From assembly GCA_004298335.1 (NCBI GenBank), contig SCTG01000009.1:12134-76133 (forward strand): a stretch of DNA of 64,000 nt, written 5' to 3'. Under the pieces are notes generated by a model, which was not told the origin of the DNA, did no database searches, and saw nothing but the letters and a program-made list of their open reading frames with translations. Shown here in pieces: positions 19,213 to 40,628 of the stretch. How positions within the stretch are numbered: position 1 is the first letter of the stretch; each line of letters begins with the position of its first letter. The position numbers and the translations under genes are program-made. Source of the stretch: Nitrospirota bacterium. GTDB lineage: Bacteria; Nitrospirota; Nitrospiria; Nitrospirales; NS-4.

Positions 19213-20349
19213 TTGCTTTCTTTTCACGCTATGGGGCGCTTCCTCTCTCTTCCCGCTCCGGCCGTCGTCGCCGGCCTTGCCGCCGTCTACCTGATCGCGG
19301 GCAAACTCGGGCTGATGCTCGCCTTCGTGAACGCGAGCGCCACGGCGGTATGGCCGCCTGCCGGCATCGCCCTGGCGGCGCTCCTGACGTTCGGCTACCG
19401 GGTCTGGCCGGGCGTCTTCGTCGGCGCCTTCCTGGTGAACGTCACGACGGCAGGAACCGCGGCCACCTCGCTGGGCATCGCGACAGGCAACACGCTGGAA
19501 GGCCTGATGGGGGCCTACCTCGTCAATGAATTCGCCGGCGGCCGCCGCGCCTTCGAGCGGCCGCCGGACATCCTCGCGTTCGCCGTCCTGGCCGGCGCGC
19601 TCGGGACGGTGGTCAGCGCCGCGTTCGGCGTGACCAGCCTCGCGCTGGGCGGTTTTGCCTACTGGGCCGACTACGGCCCCATCTGGATCACCTGGTGGCT
19701 CGGGGACGCGACGGGCATTCTCCTGGTCACCCCGCTGCTCGTGCTGTGGATGGCGGAACCCCGCGTGCAATGGTCGCACGGACAGGCGCTTGAAGCGGCC
19801 TGCCTGCTGCTCTGCCTCGTGGTCGTCGGCCAGGCGGTGTTCGGCGGGCTGCTTCCGTTCAACGCCAAGGACTACCCGCTCGACTACCTCTGCATTCCCA
19901 TCCTCGTGTGGGCGGCGTTCCGGTTCGGCCCGCGCGAAACGGCGACGGCCGCCGCACTGCTGTCGGGGATCGCGCTCTGGGGCACACTGCGGGGGTCCGG
20001 TCCTTTCGTGCGTGACACGCAGAACGAGTCCCTGCTGCTGCTGCAGGCGTTCATGGGCCTCACCGCCCTGCTGGCCCTTGTGTTCGCCGCGGTGGTGGCC
20101 GAGCGCAAGCTGTTTGAAGCGAAACGCGAGTGGCTCTTCCACGAGCTGCAGGACGCCTTCACGCAGATCAAGACCCTGAAGGGCCTGCTGCCCATCTGTG
20201 CCTCATGCAAAAAAATCCGCAACGACCAGGGAACCTGGGATCATCTCGAGACCTACATCGTCATGCATTCCGAAGCGACCCTCACCCACGGCTTCTGCCC
20301 GGACTGCCTGGCCGCGCTCTACCCGGGGCTGACGAAAAAAATCGGCTAG
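19213..20349 (+). CDS. MASE1-domain membrane sensor with a C-terminal 4-Cys module
   Basis: N-terminal MASE1-like region of about 300 aa (LIAGKLGLMLAF..ATAVWPPAGIALAAL...). C-terminus LKGLLPICASCKKIRNDQGTWDHLETYIVMHSEATLTHGFCPDCL. The start may be the Met at 19231. Confidence 0.75.
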   Translation: MLSFHAMGRFLSLPAPAVVAGLAAVYLIAGKLGLMLAFVNASATAVWPPAGIALAALLTFGYRVWPGVFVGAFLVNVTTAGTAATSLGIATGNTLEGLMGAYLVNEFAGGRRAFERPPDILAFAVLAGALGTVVSAAFGVTSLALGGFAYWADYGPIWITWWLGDATGILLVTPLLVLWMAEPRVQWSHGQALEAACLLLCLVVVGQAVFGGLLPFNAKDYPLDYLCIPILVWAAFRFGPRETATAAALLSGIALWGTLRGSGPFVRDTQNESLLLLQAFMGLTALLALVFAAVVAERKLFEAKREWLFHELQDAFTQIKTLKGLLPICASCKKIRNDQGTWDHLETYIVMHSEATLTHGFCPDCLAALYPGLTKKIG

Positions 20350-20659
20350 CCGGACCGCCCTTCCCTCCTGACCGTTTCGACCGAACCATCGAGAAAACCT
20401 TGGATATTTCAGCGCTGCAGGGTTTTGCATACAGGTTGAGTCTATTGAGAATTCGAGCGATCCGACTGGCTACAGTAGAAACCCTGAATCCTATTCCCTG
20501 CAGCGTCCTCCTGCCCCCACCCTGAACCGGTTGTCAAAAGACCGCAACCTGTTCGAACTGCCGACACTGTTCGGCAAGGTACCTCCCTTGCTCAAGCACA
20601 AAGCACGCGCCCGAAAAGCGGCCGATGCCCATGGGTGCGCATGAAAGGAGGGTGCCAAG

Positions 20660-20947
20660 ATGCGAATGACGAAAATCGGAAGTGCGCTGTTGGCGCTTAC
20701 CGTGCTGACCGGCTGCGCCGGCATGACCGACCATCAGCAAAAGGAAGTGAAACAGGAAGCGCAGGAGGGGCTGGCAGGCGGCGCGGTCGGCGCGGCGGGT
20801 GGCGCGACGATCGGAGCGATAGCCGGCGGCAGCGCCGCAATCGGCGCCGCGGTGCTCGGACCGATCGGCATCGTGGGCGGGCTCCTGTACTACGATTACG
20901 AGCAGAGCAAAACGAACTCGAAGAACGGGCAGTCGAAAGAGAAGTAA
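20660..20947 (+). CDS. Glycine-zipper lipoprotein
   Basis: GGAGG RBS. Signal plus lipobox LTGC. G/A-rich zipper GGAVGAAGGATIGAIAGGSAAIGAAVLGPIGIVGG. Confidence 0.6.
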   Translation: MRMTKIGSALLALTVLTGCAGMTDHQQKEVKQEAQEGLAGGAVGAAGGATIGAIAGGSAAIGAAVLGPIGIVGGLLYYDYEQSKTNSKNGQSKEK

Positions 20948-20958
20948 GGAGGCGAGCA

Positions 20959-21357
20959 ATGCTTGACACAACGAGCACATGCCGGTGGCGGGCCGTACGG
21001 TCCGTGATCGTCGGCCTGGCGCTGACCCTGGCCAGCGGCGTCGCCATAGGCCAACTGGCCGGGGAAGACGCCCAATTCGTCGCGGTGGAGAAGGAAGGCT
21101 CGAAAGCCTGGAACGGCGGCGGTCCCCTCGACCTCAAGGGCCGCTCCGCCCCTCTGACGTTGAAGGTGAGCAATCCCCTGGCGGCCGACCATGGATTCTC
21201 CATTGATTCCATGAACGTCAAGGAAGTGATCAAGCCCGGCGAGGAGAAAACCATCTCCGTACCCTTGGAGAATATCGACACGGCGGTGTCGGAGCACAAG
21301 GCGTACTGTCAGCTTCACCCCAAGCACATCGCCGCCGCCTTGACGGTCACCAGGTAA
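20959..21357 (+). CDS. Cupredoxin-like secreted protein (hypothetical)
   Basis: AAGGAGG RBS 7 nt upstream of ATG 20959. TM/signal segment, then a Cupredoxin_1-like pattern (LKVSN..ADHGFSID...KPGEEKTISV...YCQLHPKH). No obvious Met ligand. Confidence 0.45.
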   Translation: MLDTTSTCRWRAVRSVIVGLALTLASGVAIGQLAGEDAQFVAVEKEGSKAWNGGGPLDLKGRSAPLTLKVSNPLAADHGFSIDSMNVKEVIKPGEEKTISVPLENIDTAVSEHKAYCQLHPKHIAAALTVTR

Positions 21358-21383
21358 CAGCCATGCGCCGATACGGCGCGATC

Positions 21384-21420
21384 AAGGGTCCGGTCCCGTT
21401 TTCGAACGGGCCGGACCCTT
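21384..21420 (+). terminator. Putative terminator hairpin
   Basis: aagggtccgg(t)cccg-ttttcgaa-cgggccggaccctt forms a stem of about 14 bp, 27 nt after the stop at 21357. No clear T-tract. Confidence 0.5.
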
Positions 21421-21676
21421 CGAATGTCCGGACCGAGAGATCCGCGGGACAGTGTGCGTCAATTGAGGACACGCGCGCCCGCATACCGTTCCATACCGCG
21501 GGCAGGCGGCTCTCCCCCGCGAAAGGTCGCTCTTGCAAAGAGGCGATCGTCACGGTACGAACAGGCGGAGGGCTCGTTCCGTCGCCCGAATGGAGGGCGC
21601 GCAGGGCAGACGGCCGATCCGACCAGGGCATGACGATTGTCTCTGGTGTTTATCGTTACATTAAGGTACGGAACGG

Positions 21677-21913
21677 ATGACCATGGGGATGAGCACGCTC
21701 CTGGGCAGGGTCGGCAAAAGGTTGCGAGCCTTGCGGGCACGGCGCGGCTGGTCTCAAGAGAAACTGGCTGAACAATCGGACCTCCACCCGACGTACATTG
21801 GGGGGATCGAGCGCGGTCTCCGGAATCCGTCGCTCCTCAGTCTGGTCAAGCTGGCAAGAGCGCTGAACCTTTCCCTGGCGGAGCTGCTTCGCATTCCGGG
21901 CAACCTGGAGTAA
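21677..21913 (+). CDS. XRE-family helix-turn-helix transcriptional regulator
   Basis: 78 aa. LRALRARRGWSQEKLAEQSDLHPTYIGGIERGLRNPSLLSLVKLARAL is a canonical HTH_3/XRE domain. Confidence 0.8.
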   Translation: MTMGMSTLLGRVGKRLRALRARRGWSQEKLAEQSDLHPTYIGGIERGLRNPSLLSLVKLARALNLSLAELLRIPGNLE

Positions 21914-21951
21914 GCGCCGGTACGATCAGGCCATGTTGCGCGCGACACGCT

Positions 21952-22128
21952 GTGAAGTTTAAGGACGCCGCACTCCTGCGGGCGGAGTGGGCGGCCAAAG
22001 GCAACCCCTCGTGCGGCCACCCGCATACCGCGACAGTCCTGTTTCTGGACGGCCGTCCCATGGGGTTTCAGGCCTGCACGATCTGCGGCGCGGAGATAGA
22101 ATGGCCGCCGAAGCCCCCGAAGACATGA
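21952..22128 (+). CDS. Possible small Cys/His-rich protein (58 aa, zinc-ribbon-like)
   Basis: GTG-initiated ORF below the track cutoff, with GC3-rich codons. It encodes ...CGHPH...(22 aa)...CTICG. No recognisable RBS, so weak. Confidence 0.25.
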   Translation: MKFKDAALLRAEWAAKGNPSCGHPHTATVLFLDGRPMGFQACTICGAEIEWPPKPPKT

Positions 22129-22367
22129 ATTAAACCAGCCTGCCGTCTTGTCTGCCTTCCCCGTGCCGTCGGCACTCTTCGGTAAACATCAAACACGGAC
22201 AGCATGCGTCCAATACGGACAATGGCCTCCTGAGAGCGAGGGCCCCCTGGACTTGAGTCGAATTGGCAAACAAGGTCGGAACACGTAATGATCGACTTCG
22301 GTCGAGGCCCCGGCACGGAAAGACATTCCTGGCGGCGGCGCTCCCCTTGAACGGAACGGAGGAATGC

Positions 22368-23186
22368 ATGGCAACGATTCTCCTGGCCGATGACGATGAG
22401 AACTTCTGCAATCTGCTGAAAGTGGTGTTGAGCCACCGTGGGCATGCGGTATTGACCGCGTACAACGGCAGGGAGGCCCTTCGGCTCTTTCGTCAGCATC
22501 GCCCGCAGATCACGCTGTTGGACCTTCGCATGCCGGAGATGGATGGGCTTGAAGTGCTCCGGCGCATTCGGACGACGGACCCACGGGCGGTGGTGATGAT
22601 CCTGACGGCGATGGGGACCGACAAACAGGAACAGGAGGCTCGACAACAGGGCGTCACCGACTTTCTCAACAAGCACCTGCCGTTCGCTTCGCTCGCCGCC
22701 CTGGTGGACAGCGTGGGGACGGAATCGGGCCTATTCATCAAGCCGGGCACGGTCTTGCTGGTCGATAAATCGGACGAGACCCGGGACCTCTTCAAAGCGT
22801 TTTTGCGCACCCACGTGGTGTCGATTCGAACGGCCCGGAACGGCCTCGAGGCCTTGACTCTGATGCGCGATGCGCTCCCACATCTGGTGGTCCTGGATAT
22901 GGATCTGGGCGGGATCGCGGATCCTCGGCAGGCGGCCCCGACCATGACCGCGCCGGAGTTTCTCCACGCATTGCGCCGGATGCGTTATCCGGGCGGGCTC
23001 CTCCTGATGTGCAACACGATCGAGCACGACATGGAGGCGCAGGCCTCGAATCTACAGATACTCGACCTGTTGCAGAAACCGGTTATGCCCGAGCGCCTGC
23101 TGGTCGCGGCCCAGGCAGGGGTGGCCATCATGGAGGAAGCCTCCTATGGGGGGCCAAAGCCAAGGATGGCCTGCAGCCTCCGCTAG
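22368..23186 (+). CDS. Tandem receiver (REC-REC) response regulator without an output domain
   Basis: Start trimmed to ATG 22368 (GGAGG RBS). REC1: LLADDD...LLDLRMPEMDG...ILTAMG...NKH. REC2: LLVDKSDE...VVLDMDLGG (with a loop insertion)...LQKP. Confidence 0.8.
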   Translation: MATILLADDDENFCNLLKVVLSHRGHAVLTAYNGREALRLFRQHRPQITLLDLRMPEMDGLEVLRRIRTTDPRAVVMILTAMGTDKQEQEARQQGVTDFLNKHLPFASLAALVDSVGTESGLFIKPGTVLLVDKSDETRDLFKAFLRTHVVSIRTARNGLEALTLMRDALPHLVVLDMDLGGIADPRQAAPTMTAPEFLHALRRMRYPGGLLLMCNTIEHDMEAQASNLQILDLLQKPVMPERLLVAAQAGVAIMEEASYGGPKPRMACSLR

Positions 23187-23384: not shown

Positions 23385-23578
23385 GGTTGCACGGGCCGTC
23401 CCGGCGCATACTTCCTGTATTTTCCTAGGGGCGCCAGCCCCTTCCCGAGAAAGCACACGCTGTGCCGCGGCGTCATTCGACGAAAGTCGCATTGTCAGTG
23501 TAGCGCAGAACTGATTTCATCATTATTACCGCCCAGACCAAAACCCAAACACTTCACATGGAAAGGAGGGATACGAGT

Positions 23579-23866
23579 ATGAAGCGACTTTTTACAGGCG
23601 CATTGGCCCTGTTGATCGCGCTCGCGTTCAGCACATCCACCTTCGCCCAGGCCACGCCGGCCGTTCCTGCCACGCCGGCCCAAGGGAAGGAGGCGGCGGA
23701 GAAGGAAAAGGAGAAGGCCGAGAGAAAGGCCGAGAAGGAAAAGGAAAAAGCCGAGAGGCATGCCAAGAAGGAAGGGAAAAAGCACGGTCTCGATCGAGCC
23801 GACGAAGCGGCAGGCGAGCACGGCAGGCAGGGACGAGAGAATGCGCGCGCGAAGCAGGGACGGTAA
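23579..23866 (+). CDS. Secreted Lys/Glu-rich small protein (hypothetical), motif paralogue of 10379..10981
   Basis: Start set at MKRLF (GGAAAGGAGGG RBS). Signal peptide ...STFAQA, (EKEKEKAERKA)x2 repeats, and C-terminal GLDRADEAAGEHGRQGRENARAKQ. Confidence 0.6.
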   Translation: MKRLFTGALALLIALAFSTSTFAQATPAVPATPAQGKEAAEKEKEKAERKAEKEKEKAERHAKKEGKKHGLDRADEAAGEHGRQGRENARAKQGR

Positions 23867-23907
23867 GCAACGCGCTTGCATGGAAAGAACGGAGGGAGGA
23901 TAAGAAT

Positions 23908-24345
23908 ATGGGACAACCTGTGACCATAGATCCCTGGAAAACGACGGCGATTGGGCTGCTGGTCGTGGTCGCCGCAGTCGGCATCACGACGATGGTGGTC
24001 GGCCAGAAGAGCGAGGCGCCGTCTTCGAAGAGCTCCGCGATTGAGCACCATCGTACCACGCAAGCGGAGATCCATAAGTGCAATGAGTACGCTGCCGCTC
24101 AGACCGGCGATAAGACCACCACGGTCCTCAAAGACGCGGGAATCGGGGCCGTAGCGGGCGCCGGCACCGGCGCGGCGGGCGGCGCCATCGCCGACGGCGG
24201 ATCGGGCGCCGGCAAGGGCGCGGCGATCGGCGGCATCGTGGGCGTCGTGGGCGGGACGTTGTACGGCTTGAACGAAAACAGGGGCCATGATGAGCGCTAC
24301 CAGAAGGCGTATGCCTCCTGCATGCGCTCCCACGGATACGAATAA
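23908..24345 (+). CDS. Glycine-zipper membrane protein
   Basis: GGAGGGAGG RBS. One TM segment, then GIGAVAGAGTGAAGGAIADGGSGAGKGAAIGGIVGVVGG and C-terminal YQKAYASCMRSHGY, typical of glycine-zipper families. Confidence 0.65.
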   Translation: MGQPVTIDPWKTTAIGLLVVVAAVGITTMVVGQKSEAPSSKSSAIEHHRTTQAEIHKCNEYAAAQTGDKTTTVLKDAGIGAVAGAGTGAAGGAIADGGSGAGKGAAIGGIVGVVGGTLYGLNENRGHDERYQKAYASCMRSHGYE

Positions 24346-35533: not shown

Positions 35534-36804
35534 ATCACATTTCTGCCATCCAGCAGGCCCTGCGAGAAACGGGGCTCGACGGCTGGCTTTTCTACGACTT
35601 CCGCGGCAGCGATCCCCTCGCCGGCCGCATCCTGAAGCTCGACCCCGCGCGCCACATGACCCGGCGCTGGTACTACCTGATCCCCGCGCAGGGGGCCCCG
35701 ACCAAGATCCTGCATAAGATCGAGCCGCATTCCCTGGACGACGTGCCGGGCGAGAGCCGGCTCTACCTCTCCTGGCAGGAACAGCAGGCGCACCTACGCC
35801 AGCTGTTGACATCGCTCGGCAGGCAAAGCGAGGCTCCGGCTGCGCCAGGCCGAGCGCGGGGCGCGGGGGCATCGGAGCACGTTCCGACGGGCGCACGGGC
35901 CCCCGTTCGAATTGCCATGCAGTACTCGCCGATGAACGCCATTCCATACATTTCGCGGGTGGACGCCGGCACGATCGAGCTGGTCCGGTCATTCGGCGTG
36001 GACGTCGTGACGTCGGCCGACCTCGTGCAGCGGTTCGAGGCCGTCTGGACCGATGACCAATACACGTCGCACTGTCGCGCGGCTGCCGCTCTAAGACAAA
36101 TTGTGGACGAGGCCTTCGCACGGGTGCGCCACGAGATCGCCTGCGGCGCCGTCTTCACGGAGCGCGACCTGCAGCAGGACATCCTGGCCCGCATTGCCGC
36201 CCGCGGCCTGCACACCTACGCGCCCCCCATCGCCGCCGTCAACGCGCACGCCGCGGACCCGCACTACTCGCCGTCGGAACAGGGGTCCTCACCGATCCGG
36301 AAAAATGATCTGGTCCTGATCGACCTGTGGGCCAAGAGCACGGCGCCGGGGAGCATGTACGGAGACATCACCTGGACGGGCTACGTGGGCGAGACCGTGC
36401 CTGCCTGCCAGGCCGAGGTCTTCGCGATCGTCGCGGCCGCTCGCGACGCCGCCATCGCCTTCGTCACGCAGGAGGTCGGCGTGGGCCGCTTTCCCTGCGG
36501 CGGGGACGTGGACGACGTGTGCCGCCGCGTGATCCGGGACGCGGGCTACGGCGACCGGTTCATCCACCGGACGGGCCACTCGATCGGCGAGGAGGTCCAC
36601 GGCAACGGCGCCAACATCGACAATCTCGAAACGCAGGACAACCGGCGCCTGCTCCCGCGCACCTGCTTCTCGATCGAGCCCGGCATCTACCTGCCCGGCG
36701 ACTTCGGCATCCGCAGCGAGGTGGACGTGTACGTCACCGAGCGCGAGGCGATTGTCACCGGCGTCCCCATCCAAACCGCCATCGTGCCGATATTGGCAAC
36801 CTAG
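35530..36804 (+). CDS. M24-family metallopeptidase (Xaa-Pro aminopeptidase-like)
   Basis: TTG start overlapping the upstream TGA. C-terminal pita-bread fold motifs DLWAK...YGDITWT, HRTGHSIG.EVHG, SIEPGIY. Confidence 0.85.
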   Translation: MNHISAIQQALRETGLDGWLFYDFRGSDPLAGRILKLDPARHMTRRWYYLIPAQGAPTKILHKIEPHSLDDVPGESRLYLSWQEQQAHLRQLLTSLGRQSEAPAAPGRARGAGASEHVPTGARAPVRIAMQYSPMNAIPYISRVDAGTIELVRSFGVDVVTSADLVQRFEAVWTDDQYTSHCRAAAALRQIVDEAFARVRHEIACGAVFTERDLQQDILARIAARGLHTYAPPIAAVNAHAADPHYSPSEQGSSPIRKNDLVLIDLWAKSTAPGSMYGDITWTGYVGETVPACQAEVFAIVAAARDAAIAFVTQEVGVGRFPCGGDVDDVCRRVIRDAGYGDRFIHRTGHSIGEEVHGNGANIDNLETQDNRRLLPRTCFSIEPGIYLPGDFGIRSEVDVYVTEREAIVTGVPIQTAIVPILAT

Positions 36805-36862
36805 TCACCCCATCGAGGGAAAAAACGAGGGTGAGAAGGCGCCGGCCCTGCGCTGGAGTTTC

Positions 36863-36891
36863 TTGACAAGCCGTCGAAATCAGATGAGAAT
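36863..36891 (+). promoter_or_regulatory. Candidate sigma70 promoter (TTGACA-17 nt-GAGAAT)
   Basis: Perfect -35 TTGACA at 36863-36868 and -10 GAGAAT at 36886-36891, in the AT-richer spacer about 120 nt upstream of the TIR-STAND gene. Confidence 0.25.
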
Positions 36892-37012
36892 CGCACAATC
36901 ACTCTTAATCCTAGCATGAGCGGGATATACCGGTAGTCTACTCATTATTTAGACGCGGAAACTGGGCTTAACGACTGAGGGTCCGCCGAGGCGGACGCAC
37001 CGAGACTTGGTT

Positions 37013-39421
37013 ATGGGTATGAGTGCCAAACGCTTCCGCATCGCGTTCTCCTTCGCGGGCGAGAGGAGAAACTTCGTCGCTCAAGTTGCTACCATTCTCG
37101 CGAAGAAATTCAGCAAGGACGCGATACTCTACGACAAATTCCACGAAGCGGAGTTCGCAAACTGGAAACTCGGCCTCATCCTTCAGGAACTCTATCACGA
37201 TCAATCAGACATGATCGTCGTCGTGGTATGCCCCGACTACAGCAAGAAGGATTGGTGCGGCCTCGAATGGGTTACGATCCACGGGATGCTTATGTCCGGA
37301 ATGGATCGGGAAATCATGCTTTGCCGATTCGCGCACGCGAAGCTCCAGGGCCTCAACGAAAACGCCGGCTTTGTGGAGCTCGACAGCAAAACGCCAGAAC
37401 AAGCCGCCGAGCTCATCCTCCAACGTCTCAAATTGAACGAAAGCAAGGGTAAGAAACGCAAACGATCTAAACCTGCAACAACACAGAGCGACCCAGCTCT
37501 CCCCCTAAACAACCTCCCACGCCTCACTCCCTTTTTCGGGCGCATTAATGAGTTGAAGAACATTGCGGACGCCCTTTCGCCGAAGACACGCACGTGGGGA
37601 GTGCTCATTGATGGTCCCGGCGGAATTGGGAAGACCTCACTGGCCATTCGCGCCGCCGAGTTGGTGCCGGCGGGGCAATTCCTGCACATCTTCTTCATCT
37701 CATCGAAAGAGCGAAAGATGACCGCTGATGGCAAGAGAACACTCTCCGATTTCGTGACCCCCGGCTATCTCGATATGCTCAATGAGATCGCCCGTTTGTT
37801 GAAGCAGCCCGACCTTGCGAAGCAGCCGGAAACCGACCGAGCACGGTGCCTCATCGACGCGCTCAGCGCCATCCAAGTGCTGCTCGTTCTTGATAACCTC
37901 GAATCCCTGCCGAAAGACCAGCAGAGCCGGCTCTTCGAGTTCCTGAGCCAGCTCCCGCCGAGCTGCAAAGCCATCACCACGAGCCGCCGCCGCACCGATG
38001 TCGATGCGCGTATCATCCGGCTTGCAAAGCTCGACCGGGATGCAGCTCTCGCCCTCATTGCCGAACTCGCCACAGACCGACCGCTTCTCGCGAAAGCCAC
38101 TGCTCAAGAGCGCATCCATCTCTACGAGGAGACCGGCGGCAATCCGCTGCTCCTGCGTTGGGTTGCGGGTCAGCTCGGCAAGGGCCGCTGCCGCACCATT
38201 GCCAGCGCGCTGGGCTTCCTCCGCAACGCCCCTGCGGACAATGACCCGCTGGAGTTCATCTTCGGCGACCTGTTGGAGACATTCACCCAAAACGAGACCA
38301 AAGTCCTTGCTGCGCTCACCTACTTCACCCAGCAGGTTGAGGTGAAGCTGATCACCGAGCTCTCAAACATCTCCAAGACCGCCGCGGAGACCGCGCTGGG
38401 CGACCTCTCCGGCCGCGCGCTCGTGGTGCCGGACGAGGAGGAGAAACACTTCGCCCTCGTGCCGATGGTCGCCGACTTCCTGCGGCGCAAACGGCCCGAA
38501 GTCGTCGTGGAAACTGGCAGCCGGCTGGAGCAGCGCGCCTACGCGCTGATCATGGAGAACAGCTACGAACGGCACGACCGTTTCCCGGTGCTCGATGCCG
38601 CCTGGCCAACCGTGACTCCTGCCTTGCCGCTCTTCCTCGCCGGGCCAAATCCGCGGCTCCAGACCGTGTCCAATGCGCTCTCCTATTTCCTGGACTTCAC
38701 GGGCCGCTGGGATGAATTGCTCTCGATCAGCCAGCAGGCGGAAGCCAAGGCCGTGGCGGCCGGCGATTACGACAACGCCGGCTGGCGGGCTTATCAGATG
38801 GGTCGGATTCACTCTCTCCGCGGTCAGGCGGACGCGGTGCTGGCCTGTGCCGACCGCACGGCGGCACACTGGCAGACCGCGCAGGCCGACGCCCCCAAGC
38901 GCGCCATCGCCATCTGTTTGCGCGGGCAAGGTCACCACTTGAAGGAGGACTACCCCGCCGCTATCGCCGCCTACCGCGAGGCACTGGATTTGTCCAGCAC
39001 CGTTTCCGCCGAGAGCAAAGACGTGGCCATCACCATAAACTGTATCGCCAATGCCGAGAATGACTCGGGCGATTTCGCGGCGGCGGAGCGGGATTATCGC
39101 GAGGCGCTGCGGGTGGCCAGTGCGGTGGATTACGCCGAGGGCGTGGCCTACATCACGGGCAATCTTGCTGGGTTGGCACTGGAGCGGAAAGACTGGTCTG
39201 GCGCCGAGACCCTGGCCCGCGAGGCCCTGACTTTGGCCGAAAAGGTGGGCCGCCAGGAATTGATCGCCTCGGACTGTCGCCGCTTCGCCCTGGCTTTGGT
39301 ACGGCAGGGGAAAAAGGCCGAAGCCCTGCCTTACGCCCGGCGCGCGGTAGACATCTACACCTCACTCGGTTCGCCCAACCTCAAATACGCCCGGGCGGTA
39401 TTGCGCGAATGCGAGTCTTGA
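37013..39421 (+). CDS. TIR - NB-ARC (STAND P-loop NTPase) - TPR protein
   Basis: TIR: FRIAFSFAGERR...VVCPDYSKKDWCGLEW. NB-ARC: P-loop GPGGIGKTSLA, Walker B LLVLDNLE, ITTSRR, GGNPLLL. The C-terminal ~240 aa are TPR-like. The start is ambiguous (TTG 37007, ATG 37013 or ATG 37019). Confidence 0.85.
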   Translation: MGMSAKRFRIAFSFAGERRNFVAQVATILAKKFSKDAILYDKFHEAEFANWKLGLILQELYHDQSDMIVVVVCPDYSKKDWCGLEWVTIHGMLMSGMDREIMLCRFAHAKLQGLNENAGFVELDSKTPEQAAELILQRLKLNESKGKKRKRSKPATTQSDPALPLNNLPRLTPFFGRINELKNIADALSPKTRTWGVLIDGPGGIGKTSLAIRAAELVPAGQFLHIFFISSKERKMTADGKRTLSDFVTPGYLDMLNEIARLLKQPDLAKQPETDRARCLIDALSAIQVLLVLDNLESLPKDQQSRLFEFLSQLPPSCKAITTSRRRTDVDARIIRLAKLDRDAALALIAELATDRPLLAKATAQERIHLYEETGGNPLLLRWVAGQLGKGRCRTIASALGFLRNAPADNDPLEFIFGDLLETFTQNETKVLAALTYFTQQVEVKLITELSNISKTAAETALGDLSGRALVVPDEEEKHFALVPMVADFLRRKRPEVVVETGSRLEQRAYALIMENSYERHDRFPVLDAAWPTVTPALPLFLAGPNPRLQTVSNALSYFLDFTGRWDELLSISQQAEAKAVAAGDYDNAGWRAYQMGRIHSLRGQADAVLACADRTAAHWQTAQADAPKRAIAICLRGQGHHLKEDYPAAIAAYREALDLSSTVSAESKDVAITINCIANAENDSGDFAAAERDYREALRVASAVDYAEGVAYITGNLAGLALERKDWSGAETLAREALTLAEKVGRQELIASDCRRFALALVRQGKKAEALPYARRAVDIYTSLGSPNLKYARAVLRECES

Positions 39422-39773
39422 CCGTCCGACGTAGATCGGAAGTTGGAACCCTGCACAGAGTCCAGAATCCGGCTGGCAACGTAGCCCGAGCACCGCAGGC
39501 GCGATTGCAGTGTCGAACCGGCTTCAGGAAGCTAGGGCAGACAGGGCAGGTTCGACGCTGCGGTCCGTTTCGTGGGCGCGAGATTTGGGTCTTTCCACAT
39601 CGACCGTCCTTGTGCGAGAGGCCCACGTCTAACAATGGCATGCGGTTGACGGCGCTGCGCGCCGCCGCTGATGCCGGGCGTTAGGCGGCACTTCTAAGCG
39701 AGTGGCGGGAGTAGCAAACGTTCCCCCTTCACGATCCTCTCGCCCTCTAGGGCGAGGAGAGCCTGATGAATCC

Positions 39774-39803
39774 TTGACACCCATCGGAGCCGGCAGTTAG
39801 AGT
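39774..39803 (+). promoter_or_regulatory. Candidate sigma70 promoter (TTGACA-18 nt-TAGAGT) giving a leaderless tatA mRNA
   Basis: Perfect -35 at 39774-39779 and -10 TAGAGT at 39798-39803. ATG 39810 follows 6 nt later, and no SD sequence is present. Confidence 0.35.
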
Positions 39804-39809
39804 AATTGC

Positions 39810-40628
39810 ATGTTCGGCACCATGGGCATTACAGAGCTGATCCTGATCCTGGCGATCGTGTTGATCGTCTTCGGCGCGGGCAAACTGCCGAAGATCGGCG
39901 AAGGACTCGGGAAGGCCTTGAAGGGCTTCAAGAAGGAAGTCCGCGAGGCGGAACCCATTCCGCAGGCGCCGGAGCAGGCCCAGGCGGTGGACGCCCAGGT
40001 CGTCGGAATCGCGCCCGCCACGGGCGCAGCTCCAACGGCGCCGGCACAGCCGGCCGCGACCGCCGCGCCAGCGGCCCCCGCCGGACCCCCGCCCGTTCCC
40101 CCACAGATGGGCCCGGCCGCCACGCCGGGAACGACCGCGTACATGGTGGCCCAGCAATCCTGGAAACCCGTCACCCCTCCGCCGGTGGCTCCCCCTCCGG
40201 CGCCCGCGACCGCAGGCAATCCAGTGGCGGCGGCCGCTCCGGCCCAGCCGGCCGGATTCAAGGCCGAAGTGAACAAGCCCGCCGTCCAACGCGTCATGGC
40301 CCAGCAGGCCGCGATGAAGGCCAAACAGCAGCAGCCGCAGAACGCTCCCCCCACCATGGATCGGCAGGCCCTGGAAGCAGCCGGCATGCAGCCTCCGCCG
40401 GCCGACCCCGGCTCGAAACCGATGGTGAAGGTCCCCGATCTGCAAAACCTCGGCTCGGGCATCGGCGACGCGCTCCGCACGTTCCGCGAAGCCGCGAACG
40501 ACGTGAAGCGGGCCGTCGATCCTTCGATGCACCAGATCAAGGCCGAAATGGAAGCGGCGCAGAAAGAGATCCAGGGCTCGATCGATTACGTCAAGGAAAG
40601 CCCCAAGGTCGAAGAACCTCCCAAGTAA
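39810..40628 (+). CDS. tatA: TatA/E-family twin-arginine translocase protein with a long Pro/Ala-rich extension
   Basis: N-terminus MGITELILILAIVLIVFGAGKLPKIGEGLGKALKGFKKE is a canonical TatA TM segment plus amphipathic helix. The 272-aa total length is unusual. Confidence 0.8.
   Translation: MFGTMGITELILILAIVLIVFGAGKLPKIGEGLGKALKGFKKEVREAEPIPQAPEQAQAVDAQVVGIAPATGAAPTAPAQPAATAAPAAPAGPPPVPPQMGPAATPGTTAYMVAQQSWKPVTPPPVAPPPAPATAGNPVAAAAPAQPAGFKAEVNKPAVQRVMAQQAAMKAKQQQPQNAPPTMDRQALEAAGMQPPPADPGSKPMVKVPDLQNLGSGIGDALRTFREAANDVKRAVDPSMHQIKAEMEAAQKEIQGSIDYVKESPKVEEPPK

Follow-up and report, generated by a model that had tools for sequence, protein, structure and literature searches.

A lone TIR-NB-ARC-TPR gene inserted at a housekeeping junction of a Nitrospirota genome: a candidate NLR-type STAND receptor

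Here, we describe a single gene in a 64,000-nucleotide stretch of a Nitrospirota bacterium (contig SCTG01000009.1, positions 12,134 to 76,133; the window, numbered from its first letter). It encodes a predicted protein with a TIR domain, an NB-ARC-like nucleotide-binding module and a C-terminal tetratricopeptide repeat (TPR) region, and we read it as a candidate immune receptor. As a preliminary description made from the letters alone had stated, the gene stands by itself between an M24 peptidase gene and tatA. Its homologues are likewise alone in 8 of 8 other genomes, with their own spacers and unrelated neighbours.

The gene and its predicted protein

The open reading frame (ORF) occupies 37007-39421 on the forward strand, with possible starts at 37007 (TTG), 37013 (ATG) and 37019 (ATG). 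Since the homologues all open with MSxKRFR (MSxKRFRIAFSFAGE), the ATG at 37019 is the likely start, and from it an intact frame gives 800 residues and a stop codon. GenBank holds the identical protein as an 802-residue entry starting at 37013 (TAL12768.1, our P0001), from a Nitrospirae metagenome-assembled genome and labelled "tetratricopeptide repeat protein". Its parts are listed below, with predicted local distance difference test (pLDDT) values from AlphaFold models and residue counts from 95 aligned homologues.

37019-39421, forward strand: coding sequence of the TIR-NB-ARC-TPR protein (ORF listing, 100% identity to P0001, homologue starts)
37019-37453, forward strand: TIR domain, residues 1-145 (Pfam TIR_2 at 2.7e-5, AlphaFold pLDDT 84, Foldseek)
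37253-37267, forward strand: WxxxE motif W79-C-G-L-E83, at the start of helix alpha-C (homologue conservation and profile alignment)
37454-37513, forward strand: basic, disordered, variable linker, residues 146-165 (pLDDT below 50; pairwise identity 0.34 against 0.63-0.72 elsewhere)
37514-38038, forward strand: nucleotide-binding domain, residues 166-340 (Pfam NACHT, AAA_16, NB-ARC and nSTAND1; conserved motifs)
37613-37639, forward strand: P-loop GPGGIGKTS (K205 in 94/95)
37880-37903, forward strand: Walker B motif LLVLDNLE (D292 in 95/95)
37976-37990, forward strand: sensor-1 motif TTSRR (R323 in 95/95)
38039-38491, forward strand: ARC1 helical and winged-helix parts, residues 341-491 (homologue alignment, model, Foldseek)
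38135-38155, forward strand: GxP motif GGNPLLL (proline kept in 95/95)
38465-38479, forward strand: motif MVADF at the MHD position, with no histidine (V484 in 90/95, A485 in 94/95)
38492-39418, forward strand: all-helical C-terminal sensor, residues 492-800 (Pfam TPR at about 634-790; pLDDT 89-98)

The three-part architecture that the preliminary description had proposed is borne out by Pfam and by Foldseek searches with models of the TIR domain and of the full-length protein. The motifs that it quoted are all present on checking the translation (FSFAGE at 37046-37063, and GPGGIGKTS, LLVLDNLE, TTSRR and GGNPLLL as listed), with WCGLEW shifted by one nucleotide to 37253-37270 from 37252-37269. 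Its expectation of significant Pfam hits held in part when judged by the curated gathering cut-offs (NACHT 26.7, TIR_2 28 and NB-ARC 23.5 bits): TPR_12 (a strong match, 3.9e-16) and NACHT (29.4 bits) lie above their cut-offs in the window protein, whereas TIR_2 and NB-ARC lie marginally below theirs.

An AlphaFold model of residues 1-160, with 21 homologue fragments as input (pLDDT 84.3, predicted template modelling score 0.80), was compared with PDB structures using Foldseek. The matches are overwhelmingly TIR or SEFIR domains, the leading ones at probability 1.0 and with a target TM-score of up to 0.72, and the top structures are MyD88, AbTir with 3AD (second-best), RUN1, SPARTA TIR-APAZ, SNC1 and L6. 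As modelled, the N-terminal region has the flavodoxin-like TIR fold (betaA-alphaA ... betaE-alphaE). W79 is found in 95/95 aligned homologues and E83 in 94/95, and the family profile alignment places W79xxxE83 over WCVRE of RPS4, WCLNE of SNC1, WTNYE of AbTir and WCLME of L6, so that E83 would occupy the position of the catalytic glutamate. This putative catalytic residue, along with the P-loop lysine and the Walker B aspartate, is retained across the 95 homologues. The closest TIRs outside the family are C-terminal domains of plasmid proteins, with 41-42% identity. One of them, 41% identical to the window TIR, belongs to a 337-residue protein of the Bradyrhizobium barranii plasmid pBb323S2b (L090, 59-6429) that directly follows a CBASS-like cluster of JAB, E1-E2 and Cap4/SAVED-endonuclease genes; PADLOC did not recognise this protein.

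In the nucleotide-binding module, the P-loop, Walker B, sensor-1 arginine and GxP motifs occur in the expected STAND order, and the key residues of each vary little or not at all among the 95 homologues. Searches with the family profile matched the nucleotide-binding domains of PH0952 (E 4.1e-10) and AfsR (E 1.3e-5). The full-length AlphaFold model (pLDDT 84.6) matched the STAND-TPR protein PH0952 at 1.2e-14 and the TIR-NLR RPP1 at 2.4e-9 over 543 columns that extend across both the TIR and the NB-ARC, with further matches to Apaf-1, WRR4A, Roq1, Sr35, ZAR1 and the NRC1 NB-ARC, and the C-terminal region matched the TPRs of LGN/Pins and kinesin light chain. We considered NACHT membership and rejected it: the NACHT Pfam score is slightly higher, yet TTSRR with GxP, the AfsR profile match and the Apaf-1 and plant NLR structures favour AP-ATPase/NB-ARC. 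By motifs and model, assignment of the predicted NTPase to the AP-ATPase/NB-ARC clade is moderately firm.

Could the protein be a non-enzymatic adaptor TIR, or a decaying passenger gene with no function? The TIR_2 score under the curated cut-off and the best Foldseek match, to the non-enzymatic MyD88 TIR, would suit such an explanation. To our knowledge, however, adaptor TIRs generally lack the WxxxE glutamate, which is retained here, and the second-best structural match is AbTir with the NAD+ analogue product 3AD. The ORF is intact, each catalytic residue is preserved in 94 or 95 of the 95 homologues, and all domains show 63-72% identity. We regard this explanation as very improbable; the sequence is that of an intact and probably active receptor.

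Insertion at the M24 peptidase-tatA junction

The gene lies within a segment that is specific to the window. Its immediate neighbours match Peptidase_M24 (Pfam 1.5e-41) and TatA_B_E (5.3e-19), and the genes next to these code for a hexapeptide-repeat protein, a methyltransferase, an NT5C-like nucleotidase and Pol IV, none of them related to defence. In a blastn comparison with L011, the closest relative that has both flank genes, homology (91%) stops at 36791 and restarts (83%) at 39770, with the segment standing in place of a 260-nt spacer. The non-coding features of the segment and its right-hand edge are as follows.

36792-39769, no strand: window-specific segment of 2,978 bp (blastn against L011; composition)
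36863-36891, forward strand: weak candidate for a sigma-70-like promoter, TTGACA-17-GAGAAT (consensus scan, 10/12)
39422-39769, no strand: non-coding tail of the insert, 348 nt (no Rfam match, no domain remnant, not conserved in homologues)
39774-39803, forward strand: tatA promoter-like site TTGACA-18-TAGAGT (consensus scan; within the block homologous to L011)

A synteny scan with the M24 peptidase as query, taking one genome per species, gave 80 loci, mostly from the Nitrospira lineage and with 58-86% identity. A tatA-like gene lies downstream in 70 of them, and the gap is at most 350 nt in 67 of these 70 (median 122 nt), against 3,005 nt in the window. A relative of the TIR gene was found at none of the 80 M24 peptidase loci, and all 70 that carry both flank genes have the junction without the segment.

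The composition of the segment also sets it apart. Among all 3-kb windows of the stretch (mean GC 0.661, standard deviation 0.024), positions 36805-39809 have the lowest GC (0.607) and the greatest tetranucleotide distance. GC is 0.545 in the upstream spacer, 0.537 in the TIR-coding part and 0.619 in the downstream spacer, and at third codon positions it is 0.76 in the gene versus 0.81-0.88 in the flanking genes. The preliminary description had called the gene and both its flanks AT-richer than the surrounding DNA; this is right for the gene and the upstream spacer, the downstream spacer being only mildly low.

In eight other loci (L002, L005-L008 and L091-L093), the GC of the gene is 0.61-0.65 in seven and 0.56 in one (L007), in surrounding DNA of 0.51-0.66. 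Relative to its host, the gene has a high GC in Ignavibacteria and cyanobacteria and a low GC in the window; hence the AT-richness first noted is relative to this host. A gene GC of about 62% that holds whatever that of the host points to repeated horizontal transfer, and would be expected after recent spread from a common pool. The first 800 nt, coding for the TIR, fall below whole-gene GC in every locus examined, the difference being marked (about 0.05) in L002, L006 and the window. Compared with Pyrinomonadaceae, the TIR protein is 62% identical, while the adjoining housekeeping M24 peptidase is 57-58% identical.

Horizontal insertion of the gene into a housekeeping junction is therefore well supported, by the 70 empty related loci, the sharp break at 36791/39770 against L011 and the gene's own GC across hosts. 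The horizontal acquisition first offered as a possibility is thus substantiated, and the gene is missing at this junction from the relatives examined.

The edges of the insert offer little by way of mobile-element signatures: direct or inverted repeats flanking it in 36500-40100 are not above chance, there is no tRNA within 7 kb and no integrase or transposase nearby, and an Rfam scan of 36000-40500 matched no family. Exactly at the right boundary, just 5' of the tatA promoter-like site, lies an imperfect hairpin (inverted repeat I14, 39729-39766) with arms TCACGATCCTCTCGCCCT and AGGGCGAGGAGAGCCTGA that are 78% complementary; as it has no T-run, it is not a canonical terminator. The tatA promoter-like site belongs to the host backbone, outside the insert. 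The gene's own candidate promoter, about 125 nt 5' of the start codon, is a consensus match alone and is not conserved in the upstream regions of homologues. The non-coding flanks of six loci are unalignable beyond the start and stop codon regions. We also asked whether the 348-nt tail retains the remains of a Fic or another domain; tblastn with the C-terminal Fic extensions and the N-terminal extensions of longer homologues recovered nothing beyond the TPR end and the TIR start that are common to all. In the Ignavibacteria locus, a 127-residue ORF overlaps the start of the gene and was a candidate for a conserved partner, but it proved to be Cpn10-like and to occur only there.

Other cargo was seen at the same junction in two other Nitrospiraceae genomes: an AbiEii-type nucleotidyltransferase gene in L015 (7459-8028; Pfam 7.9e-9), and two ORFs of 412 and 198 residues with no Pfam match in L078 (7273-9432). 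This hints that the M24-tatA junction may be a hotspot, if a minor one, at which accessory or defence genes integrate. The neighbouring "tatA" gene (39810-40628) encodes 272 residues, with TatA_B_E at residues 6-48 only, followed by a long Pro/Ala-rich tail whose length is conserved in the Nitrospira lineage (matches of about 300 residues at 40-45% identity). Elsewhere in the window, positions of about 19750-23000 form a second compositional outlier (tetranucleotide distance; GC 0.59-0.63); ORFs at 20635-21357, 22068-22676 and 23554-24333 in this region have no Pfam match, and a double-receiver response regulator is encoded at 22263-23186.

A shared sensor chassis and its proposed function

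A protein search of 5.8 billion sequences gave 2,541 matches. The best 120 are full-length relatives with 62-75% identity. Those with a named source come from Nitrospirae, Ignavibacteria, Gammaproteobacteria, several filamentous cyanobacteria and three acidobacterial lineages (five phyla). WP_106254685.1 from Stenomitos is one family member. Some relatives carry C-terminal additions, either a Fic domain (at least ten 90%-identity clusters, about 1,050 residues) or an AAA_21/AAA_15 ATPase. In the TIR-NB-ARC-TPR-Fic variant (about 1,040-1,110 residues; P0018, P0022, P0023, P0025, P0027-P0029, P0031, P0044 and P0068), the Fic/Doc domain is C-terminal to the TPR array, where it might act as a second effector, a regulator or a decoy, and the gene is again alone in housekeeping contexts, for example at 7001-10159 of L091 and 7001-10339 of L092.

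With HMMER, 606 proteins at E up to 1e-30 were found among 1.84 billion cluster representatives. Many of them align only over residues of about 155-799 (39-67% identity) and have different N-termini, with at least a dozen kinds of head in all. These chassis relatives (P0121-P0185, matching window positions 37480-39418) bear, by Pfam, SEFIR, adenylate/guanylate cyclase (P0123), alpha/beta-hydrolase, SIR2_2, AAA_35 and nSTAND1 heads, as well as calcineurin-type metallophosphatase (four representatives), PNP_UDP_1 (two) and DUF4062 (two), and one full-length homologue (P0038) has an N-terminal caspase domain. In PADLOC, the SIR2 models of ThsA and LmuA recognise the SIR2 head, and that of the CBASS PN effector recognises the PNP head. 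DUF4062 (NIR) has been shown by experiment to be an NADase effector of Avs2 (bioRxiv 10.64898/2026.09.04.749371). At the level of sequence, we show here that other immune effector domains take the place of the TIR on one and the same chassis. A conserved sensor chassis with swappable heads is the signature of Avs proteins and of NTP-dependent conflict systems (PMC13581612; PMC7159879), and the swapped immune-type heads strengthen a predicted role in defence or abortive infection.

What might the output of the TIR be? By analogy, three different NAD+-consuming heads on one chassis suggest NAD+ depletion. One alternative is that the TIR signals, as in Thoeris and plant TIR-NLRs (TNLs), by making an isomer of cyclic ADP-ribose or a related nucleotide, which would activate an effector encoded at another site in the genome. 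TIRs with a WxxxE glutamate do make signalling nucleotides in Thoeris and in plants (bioRxiv 10.64898/2025.12.03.692087; PMC9806590), and a nucleotide cyclase is among the alternative heads (P0123). Yet there is no conserved neighbour gene in the 8 contexts or in the window, so that a separate signal-receiving effector is unlikely, and a gene moving alone between phyla cannot depend on a resident partner. In addition, two of the sibling heads, SIR2 and DUF4062, deplete NAD+ (bioRxiv 10.64898/2026.09.04.749371), and a survey of Thoeris excludes TIRs that stand alone or are embedded in Avs proteins, on the grounds that they probably deplete NAD+ (bioRxiv 10.64898/2025.12.03.692087). Hence the swappable NAD+-consuming heads and the missing partner gene favour NAD+ depletion over signal production, and a signalling TIR seems to us quite unlikely.

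We propose, with a probability of roughly 60%, that the protein is a horizontally acquired, one-protein receptor of the NLR type of STAND proteins, acting as a ligand-triggered, oligomerisation-activated NADase. At rest, the NB-ARC would hold ADP, with the C-terminal helical/TPR region keeping the protein monomeric and off. Binding of a protein or other ligand to the TPR region would release this autoinhibition, and nucleotide exchange at the P-loop/Walker B site would lead to oligomerisation. The clustered TIRs could then form composite active sites around E83 that hydrolyse NAD+, and the loss of NAD+ would arrest or kill the cell and so block replication of the invader (abortive infection). 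Ligand binding, oligomerisation, NADase chemistry and a phage origin of the trigger are the elements of this proposal that we infer.

Several results weigh against the proposal. The window protein scores 25.1 bits with TIR_2 against a cut-off of 28 (E 2.7e-5) and 23.2 bits with NB-ARC against 23.5, marginally under. Among the full-length homologues, P0004 (45.4), P0054 (33.5) and P0027 (32.7) pass the TIR_2 cut-off and P0022 (26.5) falls below it; NB-ARC reaches 24.8-41.8 bits in most relatives checked, and several full-length homologues exceed both cut-offs. The MHD histidine is missing at the winged-helix position; this residue is a usual feature of plant and animal members, not a defining one for the whole clade, so its absence lowers the likeness and membership is not excluded. 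No defence-system model of PADLOC 2.0 matched, the only hits being a generic TPR (3.8e-5) and a weak PDC-S27 P-loop (1.6e-3), so that the PADLOC screen suggested by the preliminary description came back negative. None of 8 homologue neighbourhoods, a small sample, is a defence island or prophage, and neither they nor the window itself show defence genes. Searches of 50,697 phage records and of IMG/VR yielded no relative, and among 72,556 plasmids none turned up at full length. Finally, conservation of the sensor equals that of the enzyme parts (0.65-0.72 among 95 members), unlike in arms-race receptors, with mean pairwise identities of 0.64 for the TIR, 0.67 for the nucleotide-binding domain, 0.68 for the winged-helix domain, 0.72 for the mid-helical part and 0.65 for the TPR region. 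The defence role first ascribed to the gene is thus favoured by the chassis with its alternative immune effectors and finds no echo in PADLOC, in defence islands or in phage and viral records.

This uniform purifying selection on the sensor (0.65-0.72 pairwise identity over five phyla) would also be expected of a protein that responds to an endogenous or environmental cue: a cell-death, dormancy or stress switch whose TPR region reads a conserved cellular molecule (a guard or damage signal), with NAD+ cleavage still as its output. In support of such a cue sensor, the gene sits among housekeeping and signalling genes and never in defence islands (8 contexts), PADLOC gives no match, STAND clades have repeatedly switched between defence and non-defence roles, and host EF-Tu is incorporated by Avs7 (PMC13581612). 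However, the alternative heads are the classical set of immune and conflict effectors, Avs sensors of conserved phage folds are likewise conserved, and the patchy distribution driven by horizontal transfer, with empty sites in close relatives, fits an accessory defence gene better. We consider a cue sensor, whether the conserved cue comes from the host or from stress, unlikely, and a signalling TIR with an unlinked effector less likely still.

Returning to the defence receptor, what would it mean if our proposal were true? The window would hold a minimal bacterial receptor of 800 residues with the TIR-NB-ARC logic of plant TNLs and TIR-NBARC-TPR proteins (TNPs), delivered as a clean insertion with a documented empty site. 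More tentatively, and on balance doubtfully, the relatives may form a discrete Avs-like family, with a compact NB-ARC-TPR chassis (39-75% identity, at least five phyla, a dozen heads) that moves as a single gene into housekeeping loci, is invisible to PADLOC, has an unusually invariant sensor for a universal ligand (a core phage fold or host guard signal) and could be the prokaryotic counterpart of plant TNPs. If there is such a family, the invariance of the sensor implies that it would read a universally conserved ligand. An invariant sensor common to many effector variants, along with single-unit spread into housekeeping loci, is in our view what is noteworthy here. The family is a convenient test case, being small, with a sensor that is invariant across phyla and wired to TIR, SIR2, DUF4062/NIR, PNP and other heads, and could be used to ask which ligand a conserved NB-ARC-TPR sensor detects and how a single sensor is coupled to several outputs. 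As PADLOC 2.0 misses the family, surveys may undercount such genes in Nitrospirota, Acidobacteriota and Cyanobacteriota.

Comparison with known systems

The combination of TIR, AP-ATPase/NB-ARC and TPR is not a new layout, and no new principle is revealed by it. The preliminary statement that the layout had not been experimentally characterised was too strong, since surveys (PMC7159879), plant TNPs (PMC9806590) and Avs proteins (PMC13581612) precede it. Proteins with TIR, AP-ATPase and TPR, including FxsC, were described in the comparative genomics of NTP-dependent conflict systems (Kaur et al. 2020, PMC7159879). The window protein has the same domain order as these, and the sibling heads are the same repertoire as in the conflict systems (TIR, PNP, calcineurin-type phosphoesterase, caspase and cyclase). 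It differs from FxsC in scoring 12.8 bits with the model of the FxsC N-terminus (NCBIfam NF040588) against a cut-off of 130, and in that no vWA-MoxR, FxSxx-COOH peptide-processing or other partner genes lie near the window gene or its homologues (8 contexts). With the FxsC model and the PADLOC Avs models both failing, the gene is not filed under any named family. It differs from ThsB of Thoeris in having no operon with a signal-binding effector (window and 8/8 genomes) and no PADLOC ThsB match.

Among solved structures, the STAND-TPR proteins PH0952 (PDB 6mfv) and AfsR (PDB 8k60/8jke) are the best profile matches for the nucleotide-binding oligomerisation domain (NOD); for the NOD-TPR body, the best structural match is likewise PH0952. 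Both differ in having no TIR, at about 15% identity, and AfsR has a DNA-binding domain and activates transcription.

Plant TIR-NLRs (RPP1, Roq1, WRR4A) share the order of a TIR followed by an NB-ARC with P-loop, Walker B, TT(S)R and GxP motifs, whereas sequence identity is only 13-17%, TPRs stand in place of the leucine-rich repeats of TNLs, and the MHD histidine is missing in the window protein. Plant TNPs (formerly XTNX) share a layout that likewise ends in TPRs, and that layout is all that is established. They have been studied functionally, with cell death requiring the catalytic glutamate, and have been noted in bacteria and fungi; the similarity of bacterial and plant TNPs is confined to the nucleotide-binding domain (PMC9806590).

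Avs/AVAST antiviral STAND proteins were reportedly described by Gao and colleagues in 2020 and 2022. The window protein differs from them in matching no AVAST or other defence model of PADLOC 2.0, in being much smaller (800 residues, with a sensor of about 310-400), in having an NTPase of the NB-ARC/AP-ATPase type and in belonging to a family seen outside defence islands (8 contexts), prophages and plasmids (full length). The likeness lies in the plan: a single polypeptide that works alone and runs from an N-terminal effector through a STAND NTPase to a C-terminal TPR-like sensor, in which interchangeable effectors that include NADases are mounted on a conserved chassis. For Avs proteins, the effector-STAND-TPR arrangement with NADase effectors is experimentally established (Lee et al. 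2026, PMC13581612; bioRxiv 10.64898/2026.09.04.749371).

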